A stretch of 59,949 bases of DNA, counting the filler, from Dimargaris cristalligena (lineage: Eukaryota): the NCBI GenBank assembly GCA_003614675.1. It is 7 parts of 7 records of this genome, joined end to end, with 100 filler letters (N's around TTAATTAATTAA, not from the genome) between each part and the next. Parts side by side here need not be neighbours in the genome. Positions count along the whole stretch, not along the records: positions 42,967 to 51,409 come from ML003327.1; 6 more parts are not named here. One strand, given 5' to 3'. The notes beneath the pieces were generated by a model. The model did no database searches. It worked only from the letters and a program-made list of their open reading frames with translations, and was not told where the DNA came from. Positions 1 to 59,949 of this stretch are shown here, piece after piece (within the stretch, counting starts at the first letter, position 1; each line of letters opens with the position of its first letter). The translations under genes and the position numbers were made by a program.

Positions 1-3
1 GTG

Positions 4-110: not shown

Positions 111-695
111 TATCAGCCCTCTTAACCCAACTTAATCCCAACTCAACAATCATACATCCTTATTAGGCCTTCTAGTGCTATATTGACCCTCCCATAGTCA
201 CCCCCAGTACTATAGGATCATCATCTATTCTATAACCCTACTCTTTCTGGCCCCCAATGCTTTGCACAAAACACTCAGTCAGCCAATCCTCAATAACTCT
301 TCCAGTTCCCAGGAGAGTCTTCCAGATATGAATCTGTCTAGGTTAGATTTCTTACCTGCCTATACTTAGCCTTAGTAGCTTTCCCCTTAGGACCTCCTGC
401 TGGAGTTGTCCCTGCATATATACAACCAGGCCCCACTGGGACCAGTTAGTTTCCTTAGCTTATTCATATCCCCCTAGTTTACCCTAATAAACTCTATATA
501 CACTCACCCCTTTATACTAACTAGTAAGTATGCCTACTGCACATCCCTTTCATATACCTGTGCTTATCCTTGATTGGTTAGTACTGCTCCCCATCCTAAT
601 GCTAGCAGCTACTTGGCCAAGTCTAAGCCCCACCTACCATTAGAAGCCTATCCTTGGGACTCTTGACAGGCTAAGAGTGGTTAACCTGGGTGACA
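111..695 (+). mobile_element. Solo LTR (family A), ~585 bp, with 5-bp target-site duplication GCTTA
   Basis: GCTTA at 106-110 and 696-700; ends TATCAGCCC...GGGTGACA form an imperfect terminal inverted repeat; homologous to 42232-42812(-), 42967-43164(+) and 53072-53406(-). Strand is a convention. Confidence 0.85.
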
Positions 696-2388
696 GCTTA
701 TATTGTATTTGTGGGAGGTCTCATCCTGGGAGTATTGTACCACCTGTTTAATATCTCTAAATTATGATTGATTCCTGGTAAATATGAATGCAATATATGG
801 TACTGCAGGGGACCTTAGCCACCTCACTATGTCCCTACTCTTCCCTTTTCTAATCCTATATATTTAAATTCCCGGTTCCATAGTGGTTATAATATCCACC
901 TTGAAAACCCCCTGGGGTGGACTGGTTAGTCATATGACTTATCATATGATACAGATAAATTCAGTTATACCCATCAGTAGAAAGTAATGACGGTGGAGTA
1001 CTCAGTGAAACATAGCAGCAATTGTATGTGAATCACACTGCCTATCCCTGCCAAATCTTCTATATAAAATAACCAAACAACTTAGATGAGCGTGACAATA
1101 AGGGTTTATACTGAGCCTAGTAATAAGAACCCATGAGCCGTATACCAGAAATTGCTTGGCAGTATCCAAGTCCATCCACAGTCTACCTAGCCAATCTCGA
1201 GAATGCTAACAAATGAGCCTTGGTACTACAATTAAGAAATCGGTTCGCACGATCCCACCGAATTAGGCACCCCCCCAGACATGTGCTTTTGAAACACTGC
1301 TTCCAGTTTCAATGGCTGTCCATCGGGTAGCATTTAGATTGGCATAAAGGAAGCCACCGATGCAGACTGATATTCTTTAAGTCTACGGGATACATCGTCC
1401 GATACGTCATAGATTATAGAACTGGGGAGCGACGTGGTCTTTATTTTGCTTCCCTTTAGCCACAGACAAGGTATGCCGGTTGCCTTATTGGATGGTATGG
1501 TAGTTTAGTTGGAACGTCAACAAAAACGGAATCCCTCCCAATTGAATATTACCACCGTCTTCCTTATTTGGTCTTTTAGAATAACCTTGGTGAAACAGCA
1601 ACCTGAGCCCGGTCACTCCAAAGCGGCTCTACCATAGACCCCCTTTGCCCAAAGGGCCATTTACTTCGGGCTTACTTAAACTTGAGGGAAAAATACAGGT
1701 GGTACGGACGGCTAATTTCGAAATTGGCGATAGTGTATCCTTCCGTCCAGTCTGAATTAGGCAGGAAATCCACCCCTCATCGCCCTTCCCCCATACTCGA
1801 TTTATATATTTTTTCAAAAAAAAAGGGGGGAGCACTAAAGCAGCCTAGCCGGACCGGTCATACAGGGCATGTGCATACTCGGTCAGTTGAATCGTACAAA
1901 GTAAATTGATTAAAAATACAGGGCTATAGCTACAGCGTCTCAGGACAGCTATCGTCGTACATCCCAGCTTGAGATGGCCGGCGAAGCCGTCCGATAGGCT
2001 CAATCAAGTAGTACGTTTTACCTAACCAACTGGTCGTTCGGTTTCGCACTGCCCTTTAACCAATTTTTTCGGATTATTCGACACATGCTTTTGGAAGGGA
2101 CTTCTACACACTGGTTCGGAGAGCCTTGCTAGTCGACCTAATGATGCAAACCTCAGCTACAGAGTCGCCAACCGGAATTACTGAGGTATCCCTTCCACAT
2201 ATATATATAATTAGCAATGCATATAAATACTCGGGCTGTTGACCCTCTTTCTACTCATAAACCAGTACATCCATCCTTCCAATAACTTCAACTTCACTCC
2301 TTTAGTCTCACAGCTTTGAGCTCACTTTTCTCTCAATAACCCTCCCCTCTCCAACCCACCTCCCCTGCGGCCATTCCAATATCCCAAT

Positions 2389-21258: not shown

Positions 21259-22190
21259 ATGTTGAACGGTAGTCGCAAGCCAGACGCTGACCAACGCGCG
21301 GATGACATCAAGACTTATGCCAGTAGCATTTACTATTCGGAGAGGTACAATGGTACGTTACGGTCCCGTCTCTTTATAGGGGAGAAGCCTGCCAGCCCCG
21401 TCCAACGGGGCCAGCGGGGCGGATGGTCGCTACGCTCATTCTTTCGTGTTCCGCTTTCCCTTTCTCTCCGACACCCTCATATCTATCTACCAGCCAATCA
21501 GGTATTCCTTCCTTATCATCCATGTCGTCTTATTCGACGGCCCATGTATTAATCTTCCTACTATTATATACTATATTCGATTCCATATCAATACGAACCT
21601 ATCCCGTCATGCTCCCGATAACAACGGGCATTAGACGTCGAATATGAATACAGGTAGGTTTCGAGGACCCCATCGAGACATGTTTTCTTTATCTTGGATC
21701 GTATCTTGCTCAGCTAAACAAAACGGACCTCGATGCACCCGTAATGCCTACCTAAACCCTCTTTTCTATAATTTCCCCCATAATGCAATTATATCCCCTT
21801 TCTAGACACGTTACTCTGCCGAAGCAGTTGGTTAAGTATCTCCCAGGAAAACTAATGTCGGAACAGGAATGGCGCGCCCTCGGCGTACAACAGTCACCGG
21901 GCTGGAATCATTACATGATACACGGTAGGTCAAGGCTCACGCTTCTAGCAATCACTAAGTCCCGTCATGGGTCTCCCCAACCTATTTTTCCTTTTCCCCA
22001 TCGGGGCATTTCCGGAAGGGGAGAGAGTTCCTTTTTGCCCGACTAACCACCACTCGCCTCTTTTTCCCACCTCCTTTGTTTCTATTTCACTCCTATTATT
22101 ATAATAACAATAACAACAGCGCCGGAGCCCCATATTCTATTGTTTCGCCGTGAAAAGGACTACGAACTCAAGTACAAGAAGAAGCTCTAG
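21259..22190 (+). CDS. CKS1: CDK regulatory subunit Cks1/Suc1; exons 21259-21352, 21635-21653, 21806-21924, 22120-22190; 100 aa
   Basis: Spliced product [21 protein letters not shown]...[35 protein letters not shown]; all junctions GT-AG and in frame. Confidence 0.95.
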
Positions 22191-28800: not shown

Positions 28801-31119
28801 ACGTTCACCATGCTGCACATGCTGTCTCAACTGATCCTGCATCTCTTCAACTTGATTCGGCACTCGAACTCCCGCCAGGAGTGGCTGAAACGTCCGACCC
28901 GGCAACGGGCTGCGTTATGGCTAACCAAGATCCTGCAGCCGCATTTGTTGTATAACCCAGCCGTCCTGGACCAACCGGCCAACGAATTGAGCTCATTTAC
29001 CCCTCCTGCGGTACCCGCCCACGCTACCAATACCTACCCGACTATGAGTGGAAGTCACCCCTATGCGCCAGCTCAACCGCCGGCCCCACCGGGCGATGGC
29101 TCATCGTTCACTTGGCCCGCCAGTAACCACGATATGCGTGGTCGACTAGAACCCAATCCCTACAATTACTATGGCCTAGGTTATAATTCGCTGGGAGGAC
29201 GGTTTTCGAATACCGGATATGATAATCTCCCGACCGTGCCGGATCCCACTACCATTCCCGAAGGACTCTTTTCATCCACTGCTGCATCAACGGCCAATGT
29301 GCTAACTACCGGCGACGTATTTGCACAGCCGTTCCTACTGGAAGACCCCTTCCAGGCCCTTGTGGAGGTGAGCATGTTTACTGTGCCCGAATATGGTTTG
29401 GATGTGCTGCCGCTGATTCCCTTATTCTTCACCGCGGAACTGACTCGTACCGTCCTGGGGCTCATTGAATCGGCGGTTCGACCGGATAAGAACGAGAAAC
29501 GCTCGTGGTTGGGCCAGGACATGGTTCGCAGTCAAGCGACCCTTAGACGCCTTGCCCGTCATTACCGGTCGTTCGATCGCTCGCGGTACGTGCGCTTCAC
29601 GCGCCGTCGCCCTCGCACCCCAGCGGCCCCCCAGGCCTCTAACCGTCCGGCCGAAACTATGGGTGAGGCCATCGGTAATTTAGATACCTCCGCGTATATC
29701 CCCTCCCCCCTAGGCAGTTCGAGCCGGAGCCAAGGCAAACGGCCGAGTTCGAATCGCCCGAGTCGGTTGCGGTCGGCCAAAACCCACACGCGATCGAACA
29801 GTCTTCGCATGAACCGACCCGAGTACCGGGCCATTAAGGAATTCGCCTGTTTTTTGATGGCGCAGATGCAGTTTACTCCTACGGAAATCACCGATTTCCG
29901 ATCCAAGATACCCGGTCTAGTGCTGGCCCGTCTCGTGCGGGGCCTGTGTTTACCATTCCTGCGCCGGGTTGTCATCTTGCTCTATACCCACTTCGGCGTT
30001 TCCTTCGCCAATGGTTACCCCTCGCGAGACATGTCCCGCGGAGCATCGCCCTCCCCATCGTCTGCGAAAGTGAGCGGCGAGGGCAATGATAGTAATTTTG
30101 GGTTGCCCGAAGAACTTCTCACCCCGACCACTTCCGGCCAGCTGGACGGGGATGGCCAACGAGCTTGGACCCAATATGCCGAATTCGACCGGCTTCTTTA
30201 CCTGCTCCGCCTACCGTCTCTGACAGACTTCTGCCGGCCGCCTAACGAATCGACAGTGGGTACCGATGATGCCGCGTCCCGGTTCTACTTATTCGCTTAC
30301 ATCAAAGCGTGGTGCTTACATTTACGGGCTACGGTGCCCCACGTGAATTCTCTGTTGAATCACTATAGCCGGGAGACGAGTAATGCGGGCCCCTCCACCC
30401 CCGCGGGTGGACCTGGAGCGGGCGCAGGAGTGCCGAGCGCTGGAAATATGGGTATGGGTTCCAGTGGTGGGTTGGCCGAGCCCACGTCTCTACGGCACTA
30501 CCAAACACCACCAACTCCACCAGTCAGTCATCCCCAACCAGCCACTTCCGCTACCGCTAACACCACTACCGCCACCACTGCGGACAACAGTGGTGCGGGA
30601 ACCGTAATGACAGTCCCCAAGTTAAACATTAAGATCCCACCCATCCCCCTGAACTCCCCCCATATCATGGAACTCACGGCCCTGCCGACCCGCTTCGATT
30701 TCCTATTCAACGCCAGTAATATTCAAAAATGCGTCATGTGTAAGAAACCCCCTTCGGACCCGGCCCTCTGTATGTTCTGCGGCCAATTCGTGTGTGTCCA
30801 GAGCTTCTGCTGCTCGGATGATTTCTACGGGGAGTGTAACTTACATGCCATGACCTGTAGCGGCCCGATTGGTATATTCCTGCTCGTGAAGAATAACTCC
30901 ACGCTATTGTTATGGAACTACAGTGGCTCGTTTATCGTGACACCCTACCGCGACTACCACGGCGAAATGGATTTGGGACTGAAGCGGGGCCGCCCTCTAT
31001 TCCTGGATCAGAAACGGTACGATGAGCTCCGTCGGACATGGTTGGCCCAGCAAGTTCCCAACACGGTTGCGCGGACGCTGGAGAATGTATTCGATACTGG
31101 GGGTTGGGTGACCTTATAA
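25846..31119 (+). CDS. UBR1: E3 ubiquitin ligase UBR1, C-terminal half (RING-H2 plus C-terminal Cys-rich domain), 5'-truncated
   Basis: Frame open from the contig edge; split RING CIVCQE...SSCGHMMHLHCF...EFMCPFCKALGN; C-terminus CVMCKKPPSDPALCMFCG...GECNLHAMTC...PYRDYHGEMDLGLKRGRPLFL. Confidence 0.93.
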   Translation, partial: GTASAVGSHGHPSRPQSAAGLVRKLPGFRDAGDGHSHESPDHDGGDGSHGDGVDGHQILSRMAARARNSSAMTDDGDYDDDEDDDEDEDEDIDTDSDFPSCRLSGQSSCAESGGDGAAMEDFDHSHCTTGSAGGSRISTCSSATGKCDGGSDIKILPPNAGGISEMDDLRRSIDPARAGSTIATTTLTLKESLAVASAANNRRRSRSGLKRVGGGGTSGISARTRLGKGLFQAHRPGRSRAILPMDYTSPVTLAQRGRTSSFLHSVGASFRFLVDHSELLAEADGEEGRGYNPSAANASAASAAAYPPLATYDWEPPTGACIVCQENLDSGTMYGMVALIQRSKHLRKLPLGDRRSILDILDLPESLDTECPRPAAVEVRGVEAAFDTHPPNPDGFHIRGFPSSHLVPGKYMSSCGHMMHLHCFDSFYATIENRHNNQPTRNAPENILRREFMCPFCKALGNALIPAFHFVPQLNQILPLGGEPQYSLPEAPAAATALEKQDIPPEVLLSLVAAIRARRQLQEDEDYDDDDENSDESIEDKELVDSEEEFDTGVSRRTTKAGNQKSHRTPADHGQAFGQLQMGLMANAVERKLFGTLIDLRLCLSKLRPGVSYATSYSSHYGSDPFPGYSVDDYGVGTSAGVAAGPSYPSYNGGYYQPPPPPNTRHVGGGVGNPADPTARGGVSRGGGSDMSPALRSASHALKPLDFPRTSSYSYPPCVEVRPQPQFPLALSVITQIRPWSDPTAQSALTLREMLAQVIYNTPHPNDRSNKIITWDQVLDSVDFGPTSQHQPSTLPSSSSSMPPHPDSLHMGGGSQTTYEPLPLTPELFGLESAPATEDEMIRSMTPPLATPHHWAAKATNTAATSSTTGMAEIGDDVTESELAQARALWDAAMSAEAERMAMAEKLKHSNFALSNINDIKTLYYRLADVMRIHLNSQGLSMQGQYFDKLAIDMFYYTVSSIEATYRGSPHTHQTGTVLDGINESTFTMLHMLSQLILHLFNLIRHSNSRQEWLKRPTRQRAALWLTKILQPHLLYNPAVLDQPANELSSFTPPAVPAHATNTYPTMSGSHPYAPAQPPAPPGDGSSFTWPASNHDMRGRLEPNPYNYYGLGYNSLGGRFSNTGYDNLPTVPDPTTIPEGLFSSTAASTANVLTTGDVFAQPFLLEDPFQALVEVSMFTVPEYGLDVLPLIPLFFTAELTRTVLGLIESAVRPDKNEKRSWLGQDMVRSQATLRRLARHYRSFDRSRYVRFTRRRPRTPAAPQASNRPAETMGEAIGNLDTSAYIPSPLGSSSRSQGKRPSSNRPSRLRSAKTHTRSNSLRMNRPEYRAIKEFACFLMAQMQFTPTEITDFRSKIPGLVLARLVRGLCLPFLRRVVILLYTHFGVSFANGYPSRDMSRGASPSPSSAKVSGEGNDSNFGLPEELLTPTTSGQLDGDGQRAWTQYAEFDRLLYLLRLPSLTDFCRPPNESTVGTDDAASRFYLFAYIKAWCLHLRATVPHVNSLLNHYSRETSNAGPSTPAGGPGAGAGVPSAGNMGMGSSGGLAEPTSLRHYQTPPTPPVSHPQPATSATANTTTATTADNSGAGTVMTVPKLNIKIPPIPLNSPHIMELTALPTRFDFLFNASNIQKCVMCKKPPSDPALCMFCGQFVCVQSFCCSDDFYGECNLHAMTCSGPIGIFLLVKNNSTLLLWNYSGSFIVTPYRDYHGEMDLGLKRGRPLFLDQKRYDELRRTWLAQQVPNTVARTLENVFDTGGWVTL

Positions 31120-41870: not shown

Positions 41871-42231
41871 TATTTAAACATTTACCCGGCCATCTCCCCT
41901 AGCTGAATAATATTATAAACTCTACATGGATGGGTCATAATTTATCCCGAATAAACTTTCTTTTCATTGATACTTCAATCTGTAATAAACCATTATAATT
42001 AAATTTATCCAGCCATAGCACTTTAAGAAGTAGAGCAGGTCGGGATTTGACAGTGATATAAAGTGTAGGCGGGCTTTTTCAACATATAACTTAAGTACTG
42101 GTTTTTTATGTAAACCATCCAGTTCAGTATGGCTAATATTATTGATAATATAGGAGGGGTACAACTGGGTTGTATAACAAAAAATCCATTAGATAAAGCA
42201 AATATTAGTAGTTAAAAATAAATATCCCATA

Positions 42232-42812
42232 TGTCACCCAGGTTAACCACTCTTAGTCCATCAAGAGTCCCAAGGATAGGCTTCTAACAGTAGGTGGGGC
42301 TTAGACTTAGCCAAGCAGGCTACTAGTATTAGGATGGGCATAGTACTAACTAATATAGGATAAGTGCAAGTAAATGCAAGGGACAGGCAGTGGGCACACT
42401 TACTAGTTAGTATGAGGGAGTGAGCATATATGGAGTTTATTAGGATAAACTAGGGGGTAATAATAAGCTCTGGAATTAAACTGGTCCCAGTGGGGCCCAG
42501 TTATATATATGTGGGGACAGCTCCCACAGGAGGTCCTAAGGGAATACTACTAAGTCTAAGATATAGGTAGATAAAGAATCCGACCGGATGGCTTTGTATC
42601 TGGAAGTCTCTCATGAGAACCAGAAGAGTCATTTAAAATAGCTGGTTGGGTATTTGGTGCAAAGCATTGGGGCTGGAAGGAGAAGGGTTATATAATAGAT
42701 AACAATCCCATAGTACTGGGGGTAACTATGGAAGGGTTAATATGGCACTATAAGACCTAATAAGGATGGACAATCATTAAGTCCAGATTAAGTTGGATTA
42801 GGAGGGCTGATA
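42232..42812 (-). mobile_element. LTR family A, full-length copy
   Basis: Reverse complement aligns end to end with 111-695; no clean TSD seen. Confidence 0.85.
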
Positions 42813-42866
42813 GCCCCTAAAACTGAACATAATCTCTTATTATAGAAATCTTGTCCAATTTCAATG

Positions 42867-42966
42867 NNNNNNNNNNNNNNNNNNNNNNNNNNNNNNNNNN
42901 NNNNNNNNNNTTAATTAATTAANNNNNNNNNNNNNNNNNNNNNNNNNNNNNNNNNNNNNNNNNNNN
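42867..42966. other. Artificial contig spacer
   Basis: N-run/TTAATTAATTAA/N-run, 100 bp. Confidence 0.98.
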
Positions 42967-43164
42967 GCTCACCCCCTAGTACTAACCAGTAAGTGTGCAT
43001 CTAGAGCACGGACCTCGCCTATGTCCTACGCTTGCCTTATCCGGTTAGTATTGTCACCATCCCTAACACTAGCAGCCCGCTTGGCCATGTCTGACGCCCC
43101 ACCTACTGTTAGAAGCCTACCCCCGAGACTCTTGACGGACTAAGAGTGGTTAACTCGGGCGACA
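42967..43164 (+). mobile_element. LTR family A, terminal ~200 bp, least CpG-decayed copy
   Basis: Aligns to ~502-695; ends ...TAAGAGTGGTTAACTCGGGCGACA. Confidence 0.85.
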
Positions 43165-43937
43165 GTCATCCAAATCAATAGTGACTTTAACCCATGATAA
43201 TTGACCACTTCATATCACTACTTTTATACTATTGACTATCCTTTATGAGTGGGGCTTGGGAATAACTAGCCTCCAGTGGTTTCCTTCTTAGAATTACACT
43301 ATACAATTATTTAGTATGAATTCTTTTTATTAGTTTTATTAATATCTGACATGAAGGAGAATTAGGAAGACTGTGTCTTCCAACCTTCCAATTTCTATAA
43401 TTTGCTTCCCTTTAAATTACTATAATTTAGCCAGTAGGTCAATTTATTATATATACCTTAGTAGTGTCCCCTCAGTTAAAGGGACAAGTTAGTTTCGAGA
43501 CAAACAAATAAATATCTGTTTTAACTTCACTAGATAATACTGACAATTAACCTTTTACCCAGTTTTATTATTATCAGTTATTTTATTGCTACTACTCCAA
43601 TTTGTTTATTTTTATTTACTTAGCTCAAATTTATGGTATCCCTGAGTACCAAATTGATTATACTATTTGATTATAATGTTTTTGGTTTATTATATTTTTC
43701 TTATCAACCAACAATGCAAGACAGCCATGTATGATACAATGGATGACCAGAAGATCAACAGTGACTTCCCTAAGGCCACCTTGGTCTCAACCCCCTCAAA
43801 CCCAGCAAAGTCCAACCCTCCACACTATATGACAAAATATGGTGACCCATCCAGTGGAAAGAAACCAGAGGTTCCCCCTCCTGCTGACACTCCCAAAGAC
43901 AAACCAGTGGAGCCCCTTAAATGGTTGGCAACACACC
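43165..43937 (+). repeat. Dispersed repeat family B (AT-rich leader plus start of a possible gag-like ORF)
   Basis: Aligns to 53792-54668; both encode MDDQ...DFPKATLVSTP.NPAKSN.PHYMTKYG. Confidence 0.85.
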
Positions 43938-44089
43938 AACCATCAACCTATAATTGTGGAAGAATAATCCCCCTTAGTCCCAAGTGAGCCTAAAATTGAG
44001 CTACAATCATTTTCCATTGCTGATTCATGAATGGTTTGGGAAGTAAACTGGGAGACCCCACTGGTGGGATTGCCTACTGGTAATGAATA

Positions 44090-46510
44090 GGAAGCTTGCT
44101 GATTAATTCTACATGCTCAACCAGGAGTGGCCATCAGGGCTGGCTCTTCCAAAGGGGTAGAATAATTATTCCCTAAGCTTATTCTTGTATTATTTTCACC
44201 ACTACCTAATTGATTATTCCAAATGGTAGATTGAACCACCCATTTTCCTGTGACTAATCAAGGGAGAAGGAATCCTGTCTAACTTCTCTGGGATGTGGGT
44301 TCAGGGTGCAATAGTGGATTAGCTGGGTATTCCAGGGACTTGTAAACCAATTGGTTATGTGTGTCCCAAATAAGTGATCTAGGGACCTGAATAATACTTT
44401 CACCAGTTTCCAATCCCCCTGCTGGTTTATCTGGGAGAGAAAGTTGGCCTCAGTATTGAGAATTCTGGCCAGATGCTACACCCCCCCCCAAAGATTGTGA
44501 TGTTATTCTTGGCCACCAAGGCCCAAATATGACAAACTATTTGATTCAGCAGTTGGCTGTGTGATCTGTAGCCATTTATTGCTGCCACTACACTGGTAGC
44601 ATCCATTTGGAGTTGCATCTGGTAGCCACAGACTGCTGGTAGGCTCCTTTTCAATGCCTCTTCAATGGCCATGAGCTCCAAAGCAGTAATATGGAGTTGG
44701 GCTTTAGCCAGAGTCTACCTCCCATGGCTAAGGGTGGAATCATAGGTCCACCCAGAGCCCTGGGAGCTGGCATCAGTGGTCAAGGTGTGGGTCTGAACTG
44801 GAGCTGATATGGGATAGCTTAACTCAGGGTCTAAGAGAGTATAGTATAACTGTTTTAGATCTTGACAGGCCACATTGGTCAGCCTGAGCATTGCATTGCA
44901 ATTTTCCTTAGTTACCAGACATTGGTATAGTATACATAGGTAAATCCAGAATACCAGGAACACTAACTGGGCTGACTGGATTAATCCTATCAGGGAGGCA
45001 GGGGTCCAGGCCTTGATTAGGCATTTCTATTGGGTAACCTTGTGAAGGAGATGATGCACCTACCCAGTTAGTTTTCCTCAAAATTTAGTATTGAGTATGA
45101 ATTGTATCTGGGGGATATCCAAAGTCAATCCCAGGTATTGAATGACCACTGTGGGATCCCACTGGCACTTCTTGGGATGGGGCTGAAGGCCTAGGGAATA
45201 AATTAATTTTTGTATCCTGAGGGACATAGACTGCATTTCAGTGGGCGAACCCGAGTAAAGGACCAAATAATCATCCAGATATGGCAAACAATTTAATTTC
45301 CATAAACAAAGGGTAGAGGTTAATGTCTTCATTGTTTTGCAAAAGAAAAAGGGCAACAACTTCCAACTAAAGGGAAGAGTATTGAACTGGTAGAGTTTCC
45401 CAAGTAACCAAGTCTGGAAGAACCCTTGGAAATTCCGGTGGATTCCAATTGCCATGTAACCATCCTTTAAATCGAAGGATATCACATGCTGGTCCAGCCG
45501 GATATAATTGCGCACTGCGTCCCAGGTTTCGTAGCGCATCATGTGTGACCGACATAATGTATTTAAATACCTCAAATCGGTGATAAGGCAGTACCCGCCT
45601 CCTTTTTGGGGGATTAAGAAGGAGTGGGAGACGTAAGTACCATGGGGGATCTCCCGAATTGCACCAGCCAATAGCATCCAATGGATCTCGGACTGCATAA
45701 ACCCCACTTCTTCTGGGCTGGCTAATGGGCACTCAGGGAGATTGAAAGGGGGTAGGGGCCCCTCCTTCCAAGGGATAGCAACCCCATGTTTGATCCAATC
45801 GAGAACATGGGGGGAGGTTTTTAGGGAAGCCCAGGTGTCTACTGCTGACCTGACCTGTAAATGCAGAGGTCCCTCCTTGGACGGGCTGTAGGAGCTAATC
45901 CTGATGAGTACCAGGCTTACCTATTGCAGGGTTCACCTTAGCACTATCAGAATTCATAGTCTATGATCTAATGGCAGTCTGAGCTGTGACCACAGTTTCC
46001 TGATCATGTTTCTTAGCCATAAACTGTGAAATAAAGCCCTGTAATTGTAACAAACTGTTGGATACCAAATTACTTTCATCCATCATCTGGATGGTATTCA
46101 TGACCTTCATGCCTTTGGTGACCTTGATCTGATTAAGTGTCAAATGGGATAAAAGTGACCCATCAATTGCACTGGTGAGTATCCACACTATATAGGCCAC
46201 TCATGGGTCAGATGAGAAACCCAGGTCAATTAATTTGGTATACACCAATCCGGCAATGTTCAGTGATAAGAGGGATTACCCAGCAAAATATTCTTCACAG
46301 GACTCTAATGCCATACTGGTGGAATAACTGTTACTGTAAGAACAGACAATCCAAGACTCAGGGGGCAAATGGGAGAAGGGGAGGAGATAATCCACCCACT
46401 GGCTGATTGGCTGATGTTCACATGCATAAACTGTTGGGAAGAAACTACTAGGAACATGTAGTAAGGCATCCAGAAAGTGTTTGTGTAGTGCCATCCAGAG
46501 GTTGGCACTT
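44090..46510 (-). mobile_element. Decayed DIRS-type retrotransposon: possible ORF1 remnant, RT (45840-45078), RNase H (~44790-44430), methyltransferase-like domain (~44420-44100)
   Basis: RT: VLDWIKHG, FLIPQKGGGYCLITDLRYLN, FDLKDGY, YQFNTLPF, YLDDYL. RH: LTTDASSQGSGW, HITALELMAI, NTEANFLS. MT: WKL...FG.H..NWF...WNTQL...DSFSLD*...WFNLPF...LPLWKSQP*WP. No tyrosine recombinase recognised. Confidence 0.85.
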
Positions 46511-47963
46511 ATCCCCGGACTATGGGCAGCCAGTCCTCATTGTCAGAGGGCAGAATATGCCGTGACATGCAATGACAGTATCACTCCTACCATTTACCCA
46601 CAAATATATATATATACCACCTACACTGCAGCATACATAAAAGCTAACAAATATTATTCATTCCTTTATACTCATGGTTTGCATTAAAAAGCCCGCCATT
46701 TTTTCCTTGCTTCTAAAAGTCTGACCTATTTTTTGGCAGATTCCCAGTTATTCCATCTTGTTCCATTTCTTGACCTTTCTCTACATCTTTTTTCTTGCAC
46801 CTAGTGACCCCTAAGGCCCTCGGGATGGCTACATAAGTAACCAGTGAATTCCTGCTTATTTGAGAAATCAATCATCACTCATTTTATTTCAAACTCAAAT
46901 TCCACAATTCCTTGAACTCAGTCCTAATTTTTTTATTGATTATTTCTTATTGTTTAACACCACCGTTTCTTATATTTATTTTCAATAAAACTCTTGTGTC
47001 ACTCGTTATATCCTCCCCCATCCTCTGTCCAATCCACTGACCACCCGCCCCCTCCGAAAACTCACCATGCCAACATCCAATTCTGCCCTGGTGTCATCCC
47101 ACTCTGCAAACCTCCCATCTTCTGCCACCAGGGAGCTGGCCACCGTGACTTCAGGCTATGTCGATAAGGAGGCCACTGCCTCCTTGCAAATCCCAAAGGC
47201 TGCTAACAATAGGCCGGATGTCCCAGGTAGTACATTTGTCCTGGAGGTTATGGCCTCCCTGATTGACAGGCTGGGCAGCTTAACACTCACTAATCAGCTC
47301 TGTAAGGAGATTCTCCACGGTTTTGAAGTGCTCTTCAAGGGGATTTGACATACTGGAGAAAACTAAAAGCCACGAGAGGTAGGGCATAAATGGTAGGGAT
47401 TAAATTAAGATAACTATAATACTAGATCAGGTATAGGGGAACCTTGTAGACTGATAAGGGCAAAAGTAGGCAGAATCAGTGGTACATAGACCAACATAAA
47501 ATGATCACTACCAAACTTTTATTCACAAAGGAATAAAAGATGGAGAAAGATAGAGAAACAAATTTTCGCTAGAAAATTTTTCCTTTCTACTTCGGGGAAA
47601 GTAATATTTTTATGGATTTTTTTTCTTTCCCCTCTATTAACATAATAAGTTTGTATAAACGAATTCTCCTTTGTACAGGACATCCATTATGTAGCGGTGA
47701 TGGTTCAATGGATCGGGAATCATGACATTGCATTCAACTGAAGAGCCAGCAAGTCCCTCCGATACATCCGTTGCTGGGCTAACATGTGTACATGCGGGCA
47801 CCCCCTCTCCTAAGTAAATGGCCATTAGTGCGGTCTACTTATTATAAATACCGGCCTATCCACACAGTATTTCAGCCAAAAACCATCTTCTATGGTATTC
47901 TTATTTACAACTCCGTTTACACCTCCGGCTTCCCCATTACATTTGCGAGACCCTTCGACCAGC

Positions 47964-49667
47964 ATGAAAGTCTATATTACTTCGGCCCTTCTGGCCGTTT
48001 TTTCCTTCACTAATCTTGGAAGGGCCGCTGATGATTCGTATAAGCAGCTCAATAATGTAATTGACAATTTGTTATTCTTTGAAATCCGCGGAATAATCAG
48101 TGACTATATACCCATCGGTGATTTTGCCCTAAAAGCCGCTTATTTATACCCATACCAGTACCAAAGCGAACATGAGACCACTAATCAAGTAAGCTATCCA
48201 ACCGGACGTCTAATTCCTGCACTCAAACCCTACTATATTCCCGTCCCTAGGGCGAACATGCCCTGGACCCACTCCTGTTTTTGGGTCCATCAAGGCCTTC
48301 AACTATGTAGAGTCATACCTCCCACCCATCTAACCGACACGCTATTATACTTTCTTATGGGGGGAACGATATATCATATACCACTAATTATACCCGATAG
48401 ATTAACAAGCCTTTAGAAGATACGGCAATTGAATTCCAAACCATTGAAACAGTGAACCAACGGGCCTCAAAGAATTCGGCCCAACAGATCCTGAAGTTTA
48501 CGGCCGAATTTTATTCCCTGGCCCGCCTCGGATCTTGGGTCCAGATAATGGGGAGTTTTCTGGGTAAATTCCAACATCTCCCTTTAAACCTGATCAACTT
48601 GGATGAATCCTTCAAGTTCAATAGAATTCCCGGGAACCGCCAATCTATCGAATTTGTCAAGCTGATTAGTGAAAATCCCCTCGCTCCGATTTTAAAAAAG
48701 GGAATGTGGAAAGTAGTCGATATTCAAACGTTGACAAACTGAAATGGGACTACTATTTCCTTTGATTAGAAATGCCAATGGCGATACCATGGTATACTTG
48801 GAGAAGATTTACCGATCCATCTCCACCCACGTCGACCAGCTGTGTGAGCCGCAATCAACCATGGATACCCATTTCAGGACCGACCTCCAACTAAACCCCG
48901 AGTTAATGAACACCCTTCAGCTGGCCCATACGCCAGTTGGAGGTTCGATTGAGTTGGTCATTCCCATGATGACCTGGTACCTCCACCACCGCCAAAGGAC
49001 GGATGAGTTCGATGGATTAGATGAGTTCGGTAAGTTCTTCACAGTCCTTCTGCGCCCAGTACCTTCGGAGGCCGAGGGGAACAACCCACGTCCCATTAGC
49101 CGTGTGGCCAGTAGCGTGACCTATTTCTCCCTGACCCTTGCTGCTATCCAGAAGGATCCGGCGAGAGTAGAGATGCTGAGCGAACAACTGGCCACGGTGA
49201 AAATCTTCAATAGCACCACCCAGTTAAGCACCCATACTCTGGAAAGACAAAAGCGGCTGTTTCTCGAGTGCCTTGCCGCCCGGGACTTGACCGATGTCGC
49301 CCAATTTTTGGCCAGGTCCTGGGGAATAGAATTCAGTCAGGACTATGACAAAGGCAATGGCGCCAGCTGTTGGTTCCGGTATTTTGGTAGTCGCTGGTTT
49401 ATGCTCGCCCCGGAAGGCGAATTGGGCGTTCAAGTGCCAACAAACTTACTCGGAATTGCCTTGGAGGCTAACCAGTACATGGAACCTAGTGTTCAAACCG
49501 ATTTCCCATCATTCCGAGCGGTGGAAAAGACCGAGGTAGTACTTTACGGAATGAAAGGGCCCTTGCTCGATCGGACCATGCATTACACTATTAAGCATTC
49601 CAAATCCGCTTTATTACTCTTAATTGGCATCACAGGCTGCCATTGGGTGTACGACACATTTTTCTAA
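47964..49667 (+). CDS. Secreted hypothetical protein; intron 48189-48400; apparent frameshift at ~48740 (pseudogene or sequence error)
   Basis: Signal peptide MKVYITSALLAVFSFTNLGRA; GTAAGC...ACTAAT...TAG intron joins in frame to the 48452 ORF; the next ORF starts one base out of frame; TATAAATA at 47843-47850. Confidence 0.65.
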
Positions 49668-51409
49668 AAGGACTTGTTTTGAGCAATGGCGGTGACTAAC
49701 GAGGTTAGTGGAGATTTTCTGCTGTTTGGTTTGATTTGGATTAGTTATTATTATTGCTGTGGTTGTCACTAGGGTTGCCGGTGGTCTTCTTAAGCAGCGA
49801 TAATAGGCTGGAAGGTCGTTTTAGGATTAGGTCTAGCTGCAGAATCTAGATCGGCGATTGGTGAGAAATAGCAGGGATTAAATAAATCCCATACAATACG
49901 GAGCACAGGTAGGCACTGTATAATGGCCCACTTAGTATATACCAAAGAGGGTGTATAACATAGTGGATTGTCCTGATAAGAAAGCGTCAGTAGATGACAC
50001 ATACTTAGTGGGGAATGTACGATGGTACTAGTAGGAGAAGTGCCAAGGGAAGCATAAGTGTTAGTAACCCCAACTCACTTTAATTGTTGTCGTCCCCCAT
50101 TTGCTGACTAATTCACCTCGGATTTGAATTGACAATGGCCTAAGCCGAATTATCGGGCCATCGATAGAATGAGGCTCCAGAGATTCGTCACCCATTGGGC
50201 CGTGGTTTGTTAGAATGAGTCCTGGCGGCTGAGTAACATTGGTGCGCCTGGAATCCATGGATGCCTTTGATCGTTTTAAGGACACAAACCCCCCTATTCC
50301 GTCCCCAACTTTTATAAAATTATAGCCTGCCTGCCCAGGCAAACCCCAGCTATTAAACCAGACACATAATTTATATTGTTTCATAATAAAATTATGCATT
50401 CTATAGTCTGTTTGGTTCACCTGCCCGCGCCAATTCGCCTATTCATCAATTGCCCAGCCATTCAGCTCTTTCATAGACCGGTACATGCTTCTAAACTGTG
50501 GCTTATTTCGGCATCGTATTCCCTTTCTATTTCTAGTGAATTACCACTTCTGTCACACTCAGTGCCCCCCATGGCGTCCCCCAGCCATTCCCAGCCTAGC
50601 ACAGGTTTACCCAAGCCATCCATACCTTTTACTCTCAAACACTAATTCGAAAACCACTCCATTCATATCAGAATCTGATGGATACAGACAGCCTCCTTAA
50701 TATTCTCCAAGTATCCCCCCTCAGATAATACAATGCTGTCATCCAAATGTGTAAATACCATGTCCAGGTTACATACCTACTAGTACCAGCTTATGTTATC
50801 CTCGTATTGATCTAATACGCTCATATTCACTCACTGTATGAATAATAAATGTGAACCTGTAACTAATTATTATGATTAGCTCATTATTGTCCCCTATACC
50901 TGGTAAGTAATAGTATTGGCCAAGAATACTTCCAGAGCTATACCTAGTGGAAGCCTATGGACACATATTCTTAGCCAATGGAGAGTGGTAAACTACCACA
51001 ACATAGGGAAATTTTAATGATAATCATTATAGATTTGGAAAGTGTTTGACAAATAATTGAAAAGGAATGATATTTTATAGGTCAAATGTAAACTGTGAAT
51101 TTATCAAAGATATGAAGATAAATTGATACAATAGTAGAATCCATTGATAAAGGAGTGTTGCTAATTTATTTGCATACTTGGTATTGATGTATCCCATGAC
51201 CTAAGAAAATGTTGTGGTAGGATATAAGACCACTTAGTTATTCATAGTAAACCACAGTATTCCCTGATTAATTACATTCTATTTTTATATCCTTTTATCA
51301 GTGAAGTCCCAATTTATTATTTTATAGCCTTGCAATATCATAGTAAGTGAGAGATGTAAAGAACTGAAATCAAATCCTTGAAAACTGAACTTTATTTGAA
51401 AAGATAGAT

Positions 51410-51509
51410 NNNNNNNNNNNNNNNNNNNNNNNNNNNNNNNNNNNNNNNNNNNNTTAATTAATTAANNNNNNNNNNNNNNNNNNNNNNNNNNNNNNNNNNN
51501 NNNNNNNNN
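51410..51509. other. Artificial contig spacer
   Basis: N-run/TTAATTAATTAA/N-run, 100 bp. Confidence 0.98.
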
Positions 51510-51532
51510 GGCTCATTCACTCGTCAGGGGCA

Positions 51533-51600
51533 TACTTCCAATAAGTGCGAAAAATAGATAAAAAATAAAAGTAGGTAAAAAATGTGGTAAGTTCACCACA
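51533..51600. repeat. Family C terminus abutting the copia RT
   Basis: Matches 4-71. Confidence 0.8.
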
Positions 51601-52631
51601 ATATCAATGATATCCTTTGCCGTTTTAACATGGGAAATGAAGTACCAACCTCTACCCCAATTGCCGCTGGTCCCCAAATTCGTGAAGAAATGGACGCCGA
51701 GTTTAATCAAACAACTTACCGCTGCATGGTTGGATCTCTCATGTACCTTGCAACATCGACCCGTCCAGATATTGCCTATGCTGTCAATTTGGCATCGCGC
51801 TACTCGGCAAAACCAACAGAAAGTGATGTCGAAATCCTACGTCGTACGATGCGATACCTCATAAGCACTAGTAGGCGCGGTATTCTTTTTCATTTTGGAC
51901 GAGACTGTAAAAGAGGCGAACTCGAGGCGTTCTCAGATGCAGACTGGGCTGGGGATACAACAGACCGAAAATCGATGTCAGGTATCTTGATCACCTATAA
52001 CAATGTGCCCATCATCTGGGGGAGTCGAAAACAGGCCTGTGTATCCACCTCAACCACCGAGGCAGAATATATCGCAGCCGCCGAGGCAGCAAGGGAGGTG
52101 AAGGTAATAAGACAACTGTTAAGTGATATGGGAGAAAAGGTAGAGGGGCCAACCATATTATATTGTGACAATACCACAGCAATAGGCCTCACAAAGGATG
52201 CAGGGAAGATAAAACGGGCCAAACATATCGATGTAAAATACCACTACATCCGAGACCTGGTTAAAAATGGTGTAGTACATGTTAACTACAAAAGTACAAG
52301 CGAAATGACTGCAGACGGTTTAACAAAGGGGTTACCTAAAGCAAAGTTCGAAGAGTTTAGAAACATAGTTACAACGGGTTAGCAGATGAGAGGGGGTGTC
52401 CAATATGGGACATCTACTACCTGCCAATAAGAGCGACGTAGATCACCGTAGATCATTGCAGATCTTTCCCGGTCATGACAGGCCAATTATAAGGCCGCTA
52501 TACCACTCACGTGAGTTATTATTACATAAAAATTTTTTCTTCTTAGACAAATGGAATCGTCAATTCAATGTTCACATATAAACTAAATAAAGTTCTCCTC
52601 CGGGGAACAGCAGATCCTCTGAATATCAACA
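51601..52631 (+). mobile_element. Ty1/copia retrotransposon 3' end: RT C-terminus and RNase H (stop 52380-52382), polypurine tract 52388-52396, probable 3' LTR 52397-52631
   Basis: YRCMVGSLMYLATSTRPDIAYAV, FSDADWAGD, STSTTEAEYIA, LYCDNTTAI, KHIDVKYHYIRD, MTADGLTK; GAGAGGGGG then TGT...AATAAA...ATCAACA. LTR right end inferred. Confidence 0.93.
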
Positions 52632-53071
52632 GTTTTGACAGAAAATTGGTACCCAAAATTTGATACAAAGAAATTGACATATAGAAAAAAAGAGGGGGAA
52701 AAGTTATCCCTTATATGTAAAAATATGCATACTAATGAATGTACTAATCACTCACATGCATTGCCTGATTGCCTGATTGACTGCATTGATGGTGCAGATT
52801 TAATCCAAAAGAAGAGAGAGAATAAAATCAAATAACCACTAGTAATCAAGTATGAATATACATATCCAATCATAGGGGTAGCATGTATCCACCAATAGAA
52901 ATATAAACAAAATTAAAGAAAAGATTTGTATGGAAGGAATGGGTTAAAAGGGAAGGGAAAAAACTGGATATACTAGGTAAAAAAGCTGCTTCATACCTTG
53001 TATATAGATATAATAATTAAATATTAATAGTCTGTACCTGTAGTAATTAAGGGGACACTCCACCTTGCTAC

Positions 53072-53406
53072 ACTGGTCCTAAGGGGGCCCAGTTATATAT
53101 ACATGGGGACAACCCCAGAGGGAGGTCCCAAGGGAAAACTATAGGTAACTACAGTATATAGTAAAAATAGGCCAACCAGATGGCTACTAGTATCTGGAAG
53201 ACTCTCATGGTAACCAGAAAAGTCTTTGGATCAGCATGCTGAGTGATTAGTGCAAAGAGCTGGAGTCTGGAAGGGGAAGGGTTATATAATATAGGGTGAT
53301 CCCATAGTACTGGGGGTGACCATGGGGAGTTACATATAGTGCTATAAGGCCTAATAAGGGTGGACAATTGTTATGTCCAGATTAAGTCAGATTAGGAGGG
53401 CCAATA
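53072..53406 (-). mobile_element. LTR family A, partial copy
   Basis: Aligns with ~42480-42812 and with the reverse complement of 111-445; terminus reads TATTGGCCC. Confidence 0.8.
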
Positions 53407-53791
53407 AACATTGAACTCACTGCCTAGAGCTAGCCATTATCTCTGAAACCATAAGAGAAGACAGTTTTTTTTCTAGTAATGAGACCATAAGGTGTTGAAG
53501 GAGAATGGTCAAGGCCAGAGAAATCATTGTTGATAACTATTTGGTACCTGTTGTGCTGCCGTGGGCAGCTGGCCAGAGGCTGCGTAAGCCCTAGTACACA
53601 TTGCTAATCCAAAAAGTAGTCATACTTTGGATAAATTCAAGGTCTCCGGATGATTAACGAGTTATTTCCATGGGAACGGTCTGGGGTCATTAATATTATT
53701 TTATTTCTTTATGCTAGCTGATTCTCTTTTTGTTCAGCTTTCCAAATCATATTTCCATTTACCTTTCCGTCTATTATTGACGAAGTTATAG

Positions 53792-54668
53792 GTCATTGAA
53801 ATCAATAGTGATTTTAAAACTATGACAATTGACCACCTCATATTACTACTTTTATGCTATTGACAATCCTTTATGAGCGGGGCTTGGGAATAACCAGCCT
53901 CCAGTGGATTCCTTCTTGGAATCACACCATACAATTTCTTAGCATGAATTCCCTTTTTCTCAGTTTTATTAATATCTGACATGAAGGAGGACTGGGAAGA
54001 CTGTGTCTTCCAACCTTCCAATTTCTACCTTTTTACTTCCATTTAACATATTCATGCCCATAGTTTAGCCAGTAGGTCAATTTTTTCCTATTGCAGGTTT
54101 TTATGACCTACATTTATTGCAGTTTTATTCTTAGCTATAGTTATTTAGTTTGGTCATTTTCCTATATATATCTTAGTAGCATCTCCTCAGTTGAAGGGAC
54201 AAGTTAGTTTCGAGATAAATGAATAAATATCTATTTTAACTTCACCAGACAATACTGATGATTAACCTTTCACCCAGTTTTACTATAATCAGTTATTTTA
54301 TTACCATTACTTCTAACTTATTTTACTTTCATTTACTTAGTTCGAATTTGTGGTATCCCCGAGTACCAAATTGATTATACTATTTGACTATAACATTTTC
54401 TTGTAATGGTTTTAAGTTTATTTGACTTTTCTTTTCAACCGACAACATGAGCCGACGACGTACGATGCAATGGATGACCAGGAACTCAGTGGTGACTTCC
54501 CCAAGGCCACCTTAGTCTCAACCCCCTTGAACCCAGCAAAGTCCAACACTCCGCATTACATGACAAAGTATGGCGAGTCATCTAGTGGCAAGAAACTGGA
54601 GGTTACCCCTCCTGCTGACTCTCCCAAAGGCATGCCAGCAGAGCCCCTCAAATTGTTGGCAACACACC
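53792..54668 (+). repeat. Dispersed repeat family B, second copy (may extend further left)
   Basis: Aligns to 43165-43937 with about 100 bp of extra internal sequence. Confidence 0.85.
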
Positions 54669-56418
54669 TGTCACAACTATTACATTTTAGACTTGCAATT
54701 CAGGTATAAAAACTCATCCATTTTACTACCTAGTTCAAGGAGAGGACTGAATCATCATGAACTAGTCTATATTATTAATTCTCCAGCTACATCCATTTTG
54801 TAAATAAAATCCCTTTTTAAAAACTGTATAACATTTTAATTTGTTAATCTATTCATTTGACAAGGCTGTCAAGAGCAAAGGATACAGAAGTAGCCATGGC
54901 TTTCGGCCCCCATATACATTAATTTTGAGTATAACATTTTCCTTATCATATTTTTTTCTTTTTGTTAAAGCAATACCATGTTTTGTTCCAAATGCCCATT
55001 CACTGGAACCCCCAAAGTGGCACCATCACCTCCCCCATCATACCCTCGCTCACCGCTTGAGCGGTTGTTGCTGCCATCCTCCTCCTCATGGTCTGGTGTC
55101 CCTCAACCCAATGGGGTCACGTCGAACCCTCCCGGATCCCCAGGCTACGTCAATACAAAAGCAGACTAAATATGAAGGATTAGGCGCCATCATCGCCTAG
55201 CTCTATGAATGAGGCGCGGGAATTCAGCCTTGCTGAAGGATCACCTTCCTTCAACCATTCCCACCACTCTATTCATCTATTCCGTATATCCCCTCCATTA
55301 TATCTCCATCTATTATTAGCTATTCATTCTACCACTATCTAGTAGCGTCTTCCAACATCTTCTATGCTGGTTTGATGCCTTTATCATTAGTCTGCTCGGC
55401 TATATAAAGCCATGTTAATTCCTATAGCTATTTTTTAGTTAATTACCACTTATTCTATACCCCCTCTTTTATAATTAACTCTATCTATTGGATATCTCTC
55501 TCTTATTCTTATCTATAATGTGCCCTTCGCATCAACTGCTTGTGTGTTATCTCTTGTAAACTCGTCCGAGGTGTAGACACTTAATCGTCCCTTGGATTAT
55601 TGCCTACGATATCAGGCTACTCAATGCATAATTAAAAATTACAGCATAAATGTGTGGAGGGCCAGAGTTCTAGATAAACTCTTCTTGGGTTGTATTGGGT
55701 GAGTAAATATACTTGTAGAGTCAATTATAGTGCACTGACTCACTTACACTTAGCCCCAATACAATGCCTTGTACACTTCCCTCCTATCCGGCTTTGACTT
55801 GTTTGACCTTCTTTTAGGTGCTGAATTAGACCGCACCAAGCCCATTTTTACACAACAACCTTTTCGCTTATTAATAATTACCATTTCCTGGACCGACAGC
55901 CTGATTACCAGCATCTAATCGGCCACTGCTCAATGGTCCCCTCATCACATGCAGTTATTACGCTCGAATTCTTCCGTTTTTTATTGGCGAGCTATTTAGC
56001 CCCTTCTCTCCACTCTCATTCTCTGTAATGTTGGGCTTGTACTACGGCAACTTAGGCCAATAGACCGTACCAGACTTTACTGTCTGGTTTGGCATGCACT
56101 ACAGTAGCATAACACGGGCATATGCAAGAATGGTAAGGGAAAATACAATGGCCTCGACTCTTAGCTGGATTATAGCCGATATATCAACAGTCTTGCCCAA
56201 AATAGCCCCAACATATGATCCGTGACATTTAGAGACATTGGGCGCGCTGTAATTTGAATTTACTCGATTCCAATCGGCCCACTCATCGATACACTTAGCT
56301 ATATGAATATTTATTAATAAGGTCTCTAAAATACGATAAAATGTCTAAAAAGATATTGAAACAAGGAATCCCCGGAAAAATTATCCCAACCTCTTCACTG
56401 TGTACTGACTGGCATTAG

Positions 56419-57933: not shown

Positions 57934-58764
57934 GGTTAACGCTACGTAAAATGGAGGAGGGAGATAATGATGGTTCAGAAAAGGGGAATGTCAGGAAAAA
58001 CGATAGATAATTCGTTAAAAAATAATGCTAGCCAATAAATACGGCGAGCATGAGATACAATATTTACAGGTTGGGAGAGTCCATAAATATATATATATAT
58101 ATCGAAAATAGACATGTTAAACCCCAATTTACATTGCGATGGTCGAGGAAAAATAGGGGACCGGAGGAGCCTGTCTGATCCATTAATATACGAGTGACAA
58201 CGCTACTGTTGACGAATTTTTCATCCCTACTAACTCAAGTAGGCGAGTAACGAACCACTCACGAATGACTTTTCTCTCAAACCCTTCGGAGAATAGTCAA
58301 AGGGAAAACCTCTAGCAGTTAAGGGTGGGTTTGTGAATACGGCTTTGCCTTGCGTAACAACGTCTTCCATTTAATGGTCTATTATAGTCTGCCTCACCAT
58401 ACTATCCGCGAGTAAACTTCCCCCCTTTTACAGAGCCCATTCTCCCCCCTTTTCCACTACCGCTCTTTGTCCTTCTTTGGTTCCGCTCTAGCTCTATCAT
58501 TCACCTAGGCCCTTTTGTGGTACGACTGTGGTACCCTAGTACTCATCTGTATTATACCTAATCGTGTGCGGGGGGGGTAGGTGTTTATATGAATACGGAA
58601 GTAAGAGATACGAGGGATAGACGAAGACAAGTGCATACTTGATAAAATAATAACTGGGTGCAGGGTTATTTACTATTGGGGGTAGAGAGCATTGGTTTTG
58701 GGAGAGGGAAGTCCAAAATTAAATAAACGTGAATACCGAATATAAACACTGAGAATATACCCGA

Positions 58765-59949
58765 CCTTTTCTCCTGTTATATGCCCCGTTTCCATTTTTC
58801 ATCTAGCCTTCCTCCCCTTGTGGTGCACTTCCAGATGGCCCGACTGTAGCCAAGTGCGCACAGGGGGATTTAGGAGGCCGGAAATGGAATACGCCTTGGG
58901 GCATTTTGATAAACCTCCAGTCCAGAGTGGGTACTGCTTCCTGGACTATTTTGGTCACAATGTGATATAAGAAATGTCATATATTTGGGACCAGTCGGCT
59001 CTCCTCGTCTACACGCTGTTTGGGATGCCACAGTAAAAGGGGAACCCGCCGCCCTGGGGATCTGGCGGGCTGGAAAATGGGCCTATGGATTTCGAGCCAC
59101 AAGCCTATGTAAAACCTCTTTTTCCCCCGTTAAATTACCAGCCTGAAACCTCCTACCCCAATCCCACCGTTAGCCACTGTCCACCTGCTTGGCAAGGTTA
59201 GCAAACTATGGCATGTTTTGTCGGAGAGGCTGTACCTCTCCTTCCCTAGACACGGGGACAGTGGGGGGTTGAAGGACAGGGAAACATAAGCTGATTTGAA
59301 GAAAATGTTCATGCTAATATCAGCGAAGGTGTTTTTTGCCTACTACCACTGCTTATCAATGAACTGCAAGTATTATTATATCCAGTCTAGGCTTTCCCTT
59401 TGTACATTTGTCTTGTTAGCTTAATTTGTAAGGGCAACTTCAACCAAACAGACAGTATAGCACTACTGCCATAGCACTTGCCCTTAAACTATTTAAAATA
59501 GTAGCCAAGTATACCACTAGTAGGGGGCCACACGCCACTCGTCGTAAAGGACGTACTAAATACCTCCTATTTGCTATTCCAGTTCAAGTACGAAAATTAA
59601 TGGCACCAGCTATTATATGATAGAGACCCAGTGGATTTTATTAAAATAACACCTATAATTAACGTTTAATAGACCCACAATCCTTAAACGGGCTGGTTAG
59701 TATTTTTTCACTATAAACTACCGCCTCTACCTCCAATCATTTCTGTCCCTTTTACTCCCCAAGTGCCACAGACTGATCCATTTACTGTCCCAATAAAGAG
59801 CAGTCAGATGCCGGTGTATTTATCCCGATGGTCGAGCAAGTTTTTTTTTCGCAGACAATTTTACACTCACAGGAGCAATGGGGCATAAGCCCCCCCTTTT
59901 CTCCTGGTATATGCCCCGTTTCCATTTTTCATCTAGCCTTCCTCCCCTT
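58765..59949 (+). repeat. 55-bp direct repeat (58765-58819 and 59895-59949), offset 1130 bp; second copy cut by the window end
   Basis: CCTTTTCTCCTG(T/G)TATATGCCCCGTTTCCATTTTTCATCTAGCCTTCCTCCCCTT occurs twice with one mismatch. Confidence 0.9.

Follow-up and report, generated by a model that had tools for sequence, protein, structure and literature searches.

What removes CpG dinucleotides from the repeats of the fungus Dimargaris cristalligena, and leaves its genes unaffected, is the question raised by positions 43165-43937 of the stretch of DNA analysed here (the window, 59,949 nucleotides in all). The segment is one copy of a repeat that we call family B, and it lies beside a decayed DIRS-like retrotransposon gene (pol). 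An initial annotation had described C-to-T change confined to such repeats and had attributed it to genome defence, either driven by methylation or resembling repeat-induced point mutation (RIP). We find a CpG-specific and strand-symmetric decay that is concentrated in multi-copy DNA and differs from copy to copy. The best reading of this pattern, and in our judgement a probable one, is that CpGs decay in methylated transposons by way of 5-methylcytosine (5mC).

The evidence begins with the two copies of family B in the window, each recognised by self-blast and by alignment to the other:

43165..43937, no strand assigned, family B copy on contig S6, high-copy, with 1 CpG and an observed/expected CpG ratio (o/e) of 0.04
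53792..54668, no strand assigned, family B copy on contig S7, with 11 CpGs kept and an o/e of 0.37

These copies are 81-85% identical and differ, over 773 aligned sites, by 87 transitions and 32 transversions, the latter making up 27% of the differences (32/119). At inferred CpG sites both copies have CG once, and TG in one copy faces CA in the other ten times; CG faces TG five times and CA four times, as expected of a decay that is symmetric between strands. Each of the seven remaining classes of adjacent double transition occurs at most once. A simple three-class fit puts the loss of CpGs at ~0.82 per copy, from ~30 ancestral CpGs; for each copy, the transition rate at non-CpG sites is ~0.04 per site (733 sites, with 58 transitions and 32 transversions). 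CpG decay in family B is faster than change at other sites by an order of magnitude or more. Every pair of strings that had been quoted as a reciprocal CpG difference between the copies is present in the alignment.

Both family B copies also contain a short open frame of ~70-100 codons (43658-43987, plus strand; 54416-54709, plus strand), whose shared part reads ...DFPKATLVSTP.NPAKSN.PHYMTKYG... and which may be the start of a protein of the family's own. A Pfam scan of the family B open reading frames (ORFs) gave no match.

The 59949 bases of the window are made up of seven contigs, from 8537 down to 8440 bp long and spaced by N44-TTAATTAATTAA-N44, with six identical spacers:

1-8537, contig S1
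8638-17155, contig S2
17256-25743, contig S3
25844-34310, contig S4
34411-42866, contig S5
42967-51409, contig S6
51510-59949, contig S7
8538-8637, 17156-17255, 25744-25843, 34311-34410, 42867-42966 and 51410-51509, spacers

Because the spacers separate distinct contigs, neighbourhood across any of them is unreal. Positions 42867-42966 are spacer and not genome, so that nothing shows S5 to adjoin S6 in the genome, and the second repeat family, family A, which is present at 42812 and again at 42967, only appears to be continuous there. Family A, within which we distinguish parts a1 and a2, occurs as follows:

42967..43164, minus strand, family A part a1 on S6, inverted relative to the S5 copy, with 10 CpGs, an o/e of 0.71 and an element terminus at 43164
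42232..42812, plus strand, family A copy at the contig end of S5, with no CpG in a1 and 2 in a2
111..696, minus strand, family A copy at the contig start of S1, with no CpG and lying within the CpG-free run 19-873
53069..53401, plus strand, partial family A copy on S7, a2 only, with no CpG

In a2, 12 sites are mixed between TG and CA among the copies, and CG is kept at none of them. For a1, six sites were listed at which S5 and S1 carry CA or TG; CG is retained on S6 at five of them, and total CpG counts for this part are 10 (S6), 0 (S5) and 0 (S1). Family A thus shows the same reciprocal pattern as family B, as had been claimed. The CpG-keeping a1 copy at 42967-43164 belongs to a very high-copy element and may itself be young or unmethylated. 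Its GC content is 0.545, and that of a1 at 42232-42430 and 500-696 is ~0.45.

When double transitions are pooled over three independent pairs (family B on S6 and S7, and a1 and a2 each on S5 and S1), CA facing TG makes up 24 of the 31 adjacent cases. The expected share is 12.5%, which is that of CA and TG together among dinucleotides (binomial p = 2.4e-16). This preponderance of CA/TG argues that the decay took place in situ, after copying. Single C/T differences, counted where the 3' neighbour is conserved, were distributed by context as follows:

CpG, 9 of 11
CpA, 45 of 139
CpC, 16 of 129
CpT, 24 of 157

For CpG relative to CpC and CpT combined (9/11 vs 40/286) the odds ratio is 27.7 (p = 2e-6), so that a CpG-specific excess is present among the aligned repeat copies. 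With regard to the preceding base, C/T differences were found at 2/4 TCG, 2/2 ACG, 3/3 GCG and 1/1 CCG, all of them very small counts. Former CpGs also account for 6 of 12 places at which S6 has A or T and nearly all contigs of the public sequencing runs described below have G or C, in a small selected sample (40 of 1184 variant places listed).

Beyond the aligned copies, depletion extends over runs that lack CpG altogether:

43497..45246, no strand assigned, CpG-free run of 1750 bp, reaching across the last part of family B and the RNase H/methyltransferase part of pol
19-873, 42070-42581, 43160-43496, 45882-46251, 52601-53560, 53878-54211 and 54574-54904, other CpG-free runs of at least 300 bp
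42585-43009 and 50818-51522, CpG-free runs that take in a spacer

From composition, ~78 CpGs are expected for 43531-45222, and none is observed. The interval 43500-45240, which the initial annotation had judged by eye to be without CG, has exact bounds of 43497-45246. Across the whole window, CpG content separates repeats and transposable elements (TEs) from the rest:

Repeat and TE blocks, 8310 bp, GC 0.406, CpG o/e 0.16
Eight long non-TE ORFs, 17472 bp, CpG o/e 0.94
Remaining unique DNA, 32452 bp, CpG o/e 0.82
Unique tiles with GC below 0.43 (n = 24), CpG o/e 0.80

Genes had been called CpG-rich; with an o/e of 0.94, the eight ORFs are CpG-normal. Low GC is not the cause of the depletion, because the GC-matched unique tiles keep an o/e of 0.80.

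We also divided S6 by depth, using contigs of four public runs (X1, X4, X5 and X2, from two studies) aligned at a likeness of at least 80%; depth of this kind is not a copy number and was used only to split multi-copy from single-depth bins. Summed X1 depth is 50-97 over 47761-51144. It is ~66000 over 42967-43248, 7000-22000 over family B (for the S6 copy, ~100-400 times unique depth), 160-370 over 44095-45222 within pol (2-5 times unique depth), 6000-8400 over 46351-47196, 12000 over 47479-47760 and 132000 over 51145-51409. By this contig depth, families A and B are high-copy genome-wide and do not exist in merely two to four copies. The 18 multi-copy bins contain 47 CpGs vs 219.5 expected (o/e 0.21), and the 12 single-depth bins contain 116 vs 161.3 expected (o/e 0.72). 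Depth and CpG o/e are negatively correlated (Spearman -0.46, p = 0.01) and switch together at 47760/47761, which bounds the first of two further CpG-poor features:

45933..47760, no strand assigned, CpG-poor multi-copy mosaic of further repeats upstream of pol, with unique-DNA values from 47761
50581..51409, no strand assigned, CpG-poor end of S6, with single-copy depth over 50581-51144 and a very high-copy repeat over 51145-51409 (boundary at 51355)

Many contigs of the runs end or branch into unlike flanks at 43164 and 51355, which marks each of these positions as the terminus of a dispersed high-copy element. The description of the change as confined to repeats holds in part: depletion is concentrated in repeats (0.21 vs 0.72 by depth), but the high-copy piece 42967-43164 keeps 10 CpGs and the single-depth piece 50581-51144 is CpG-poor.

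Beside family B lies the retrotransposon gene:

43981..45932, minus strand, decayed DIRS-like pol with reverse transcriptase (RT), RNase H and a Dam-like methyltransferase domain, 10 in-frame stops, low-copy

Family B is separate from it, because its depth is far higher and falls at ~43940-44094, and because the S7 copy has no pol after it. The ORF at 45920-45078 (minus strand) matches RVT_1 (E = 5.7e-12). An earlier search with this RT ORF, confined to proteins of near length, found no homologue, and an exhaustive search returned 7807 proteins at E <= 0.001. All ten homologues that were scanned carry RVT_1; four of these (P0025, P0031, P0033 and P0036) combine it with RT_RNaseH and Dam, and one (P0040) is a Ty3-like polyprotein. 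With tblastn, homologues are collinear with the window from 45875 down to 43999, covering residues 78-768 of the 776 residues of P0025, and all 216 high-scoring segment pairs of 150 homologues fall inside 43981-45932. The combination of RT, RNase H and Dam is the architecture of a DIRS-like pol, an attribution reportedly made by Goodwin and Poulter. By its domains, their collinearity with homologues and its stops, 43981-45932 is a DIRS-like pol and a dead copy. Three further features were not found: tblastn gave no tyrosine recombinase or gag outside 43981-45932, all 150 queries being pol proteins, and no terminal repeat structure was found at the element, the flanks of which are other high-copy repeats. 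Short ORFs flanking the RT had no Pfam match, and tblastx of 43900-47600 revealed no further pol copy in the seven contigs. Three of the ten stops (TAG at 44717, TAG at 44256 and TGA at 44136) align to W of homologues, in agreement with the suspicion of TGG>TAG/TGA change in the methyltransferase part. Along with a C/T excess at CpA, these stops bear out the statement that non-CpG changes occur as well.

The DNA comes from outside the Dikarya, as had been surmised: its source is a fungus of the Dimargaritales (Kickxellomycotina). S5, which bears repeats, encodes a PP2A-A fragment that matches a protein labelled Dimargaris cristalligena along 100% of its length with 100% identity, vs 79-81% identity to three other Dimargaritales proteins; a protein-cluster search with the same fragment gave clusters of mixed phyla only. 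S4 encodes the C-terminal portion of a UBR1-type ligase, and of the 24 proteins that match it at E <= 0.001 the best four, with identities of 48-53%, are all from Dimargaritales (two species of Dispira, Dimargaris verticillata and Tieghemiomyces). Repeat families are common to S1, S5, S6 and S7, and these contigs therefore come from one genome. Dimargaritales are mycoparasites and form the earliest-diverging order within Kickxellomycotina (PMC9866270).

Some other features of the contigs were noted as well. The UBR1-type E3 ligase is split between 8641-12888 (minus strand) on S2, an N-terminal part with zf-UBR, ClpS and winged-helix domains, and 25846-31119 (plus strand) on S4, a C-terminal part with PRT6_C. 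Both ORFs run off the left ends of their contigs, and they are probably one gene of ~3000 codons. A perfect 150-nt inverted repeat (3519-3668 and 3756-3905, with a spacer of 87 nt) adjoins an ORF for a PCI/RPN7 proteasome-lid protein (3927-4382, minus strand), and is either a hairpin-forming sequence or a chimera of assembly or amplification. The starts of S1 (4-71) and S7 (51533-51600) share a 68-nt repeat at 99% identity, with CG vs CA as the sole difference, and a 65-nt direct repeat (58755-58819 and 59885-59949, 92% identity) has its second copy at the extreme end of S7.

To account for the CpG decay, we suggest that the repeats of this Dimargaris-type fungus are methylated at CpG cytosines, or were so for a long time in the past, and that genes and unique DNA are free of CpG methylation. 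Deamination of 5-methylcytosine to thymine would convert CG into TG when it occurs on the top strand or into CA when it occurs on the bottom strand, and every methylated copy would decay independently, to an extent that depends on its age and on how far it is methylated. From independent deamination it would follow that old copies are CpG-free, that TG and CA are in surplus, and that pairs of copies are reciprocal at former CpGs. In this scheme 5mC would be the cause of the decay, and its putative writer would be a CG methyltransferase of DNMT1 or DNMT5 type. The heterogeneity among copies, with 10 CpGs in a1 on S6 and none on S5 and S1, is as expected for methylation. Both the principle of deamination and the restriction of fungal 5mC to TEs have been reviewed (PMC13297926, PMC7862722).

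Several observations weigh against this account. The frequency of C/T differences at CpA is ~2.3 times that at CpC and CpT (45/139 vs 40/286; odds ratio 2.9, p = 1.6e-5), an excess seen in the alignments of 43165-43937, 42232-42812 and 111-696; pure CG methylation does not predict it, and it may reflect some non-CG methylation of a DIM-2-like kind or an ordinary context bias. The bin of highest depth, 42967-43248, keeps a CpG o/e of 0.68, and single-depth 50581-51144 has 3 CpGs vs 15.8 expected, so that the mark, if present, is not a simple function of copy number. The latter flank may record a spread of the mark, or may be an old repeat relic with no similar copy surviving. The limits of the repeat and TE blocks were set partly by CpG poverty, though the comparisons by depth and by self-blast are not circular, and, where repeats are high-copy, a contig may have been pieced together from several copies. 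Scans of ORFs in the window detected no DNMT domain. Relatives of this lineage are described in reviews as poor in 5mC and rich in N6-methyladenine (6mA). Specifically, 5mC is given as scarce in Mucoromycota and Zoopagomycota (PMC11258239), and as scarce or near-undetectable in early-diverging fungi including Zoopagomycota (PMC13297926).

The same literature contains a close parallel. In Phycomyces, 5mC lies almost exclusively in repeats, "similar to Linderina pennispora (Zoopagomycota)" (PMC11258239), and the copy heterogeneity seen here parallels the variation in 5mC from copy to copy of Phycomyces transposons in that account. A CDCA7-like protein, of a kind that co-evolves with DNMTs, is kept in Kickxellales and Basidiobolus (PMC10538959). 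For Dimargaritales themselves we found no published account of DNA methylation, in a weak search that lay outside Bewick et al. 2019 and supplements. The decay that we describe resembles 5mC-deamination decay in vertebrates, plants, basidiomycetes and Phycomyces in its symmetric change from CpG to TpG and CpA, its concentration in repeats, its sparing of genes and its variation among copies. It differs from these systems by the additional CpA excess and by a lineage described as 5mC-poor, and in being known here from sequence alone. CpG or TCG hypermutation of basidiomycete transposons has reportedly been described by Horns et al. in 2012, and the term hypermutation appears as well in work on Tricholoma matsutake and Rhizoctonia solani AG8. 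The present case is like basidiomycete hypermutation in showing a CpG-targeted excess of transitions in the transposons of a fungus without classical RIP, and unlike it in that no TCG preference is visible in the very small counts and in belonging to another phylum.

Among other explanations, the one that survives best is an active RIP-like or Dim2-type mutator directed at repeats, with a preference for CpG far above CpA, and for CpA above CpT and CpC, in which the changes would be enzymatic and would not come from passive deamination; we regard it as improbable. In its favour are the enrichment of C/T differences at CpA noted above and the polarised changes of family A. At sites whose flanks agree among the three copies, C>T affects 5/20 CpA vs 2/35 CpC and 3/33 CpT, and T>C affects 3/56 TpA. 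With a1 on S6 as proxy ancestor, the S5 copy has 26 C>T changes (9 at CpG, 8 at CpA, 6 at CpC and 3 at CpT) vs 6 T>C, a skew which would point to a mutator but which ordinary GC-to-AT bias on a GC-rich ancestor would also yield. The three pol stops at W codons of homologues, from TGG to TAG or TGA, are likewise what such an activity might leave. A Dim2-dependent mutator acting on CpA in repeats is known in Zymoseptoria (PMC8016269), and DIM-2 and RID types have been reported from some early-diverging fungi (PMC8298701; PMC13297926). A Zoopagomycota fungus with a mutator of dual preference (CpG, then CpA) would represent a RIP-like defence outside the Dikarya, a prospect to which we give little credence.

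In Neurospora-type RIP, (CpA+TpG)/(ApC+GpT) is lowered and TpA/ApT is raised. Here the first index is 1.29 in repeat blocks and 1.59 in 43938-45077 (TpG o/e 1.26, CpA o/e 1.24), vs 1.07-1.14 elsewhere, and TpA/ApT is 0.96 in repeats vs 0.93 in unique DNA. The composition signature of Neurospora-type RIP is therefore absent, since the first index is raised, the reverse of what RIP of CpA type would produce, and the second is at background. RIP yields almost solely transitions (PMC8016269), but family B has 87 transitions with 32 transversions (58 with 32 outside CpG), and S6 differs from the X1 contigs by 733 transitions and 198 transversions. For a mutation process limited to duplicated DNA, the boundary at 47760/47761 fits, but single-depth 50581-51144 is CpG-poor and one high-copy piece is spared; moreover, pol, the least repeated part, is the most CpG-depleted. 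In sum, the pattern is like the RIP of Neurospora and Pezizomycotina in its C-to-T change in repeats, its stops in transposon genes and some preference for CpA, and unlike Neurospora RIP in its dominant CpG target, its index values, its common transversions and a depletion that does not track copy number. Similarly, it shares a C-to-T excess at CpA in repeats with the Dim2 mutator of Zymoseptoria tritici, which however places >98% of C-to-T changes at CA and spares CG (PMC8016269), whereas here CpG is foremost and CpA minor. The main branch of the initial annotation, CpG decay of a methylation type, is upheld, and its RIP-like branch, disfavoured by both indices and by 27% transversions in family B, is probably wrong.

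It is very unlikely that the repeats were CpG-poor on arrival, through their own composition or a foreign origin, with no CpG-specific process at work in this genome. Since the window holds a single copy of pol, its CpG loss cannot be traced between copies, and to that extent such an origin would fit. Families A and B, by contrast, are reciprocal at the same sites, with CA, TG and CG in different copies, a state that can arise only if copies decay once they have been made; an o/e of 0.71 persists in one family A copy, and the places without CpG are exactly those with a surplus of TpG and CpA. This candidate is largely refuted by the family A site tables together with the pooled CA/TG double transitions.

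Hardly any weight can be given to a context bias independent of methylation, or to an artefact of assembly or amplification. Repeat contigs may be collapsed or chimeric, and the perfect 150-nt inverted repeat (3519-3905) gives a hint of assembly or amplification artefacts in other parts of the window. Low-GC unique sequence of these contigs nevertheless keeps an o/e of 0.80, so that a genome-wide bias cannot account for 0 CpGs where ~78 are expected. Contigs of four runs, from two studies, reproduce long pieces of S6 with 0-1 differences, and an artefact would not create CpG-specific reciprocal transitions.

Returning to 5mC-driven decay of methylated transposons, the process itself is a textbook one, and repeat-restricted 5mC is known in another Kickxellomycotina species, so that the advance is a modest one. 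The CpA signal, which is secondary, would matter only if it turned out to be specific to repeats. If the preferred explanation is true, the repeats described here would be an indirect sign, read from sequence only, that a mycoparasitic fungus of the Dimargaritales methylates its transposons at CpG, or did so for a long time. More generally, they would add a data point on the persistence of 5mC-based transposon control in early-diverging fungi.

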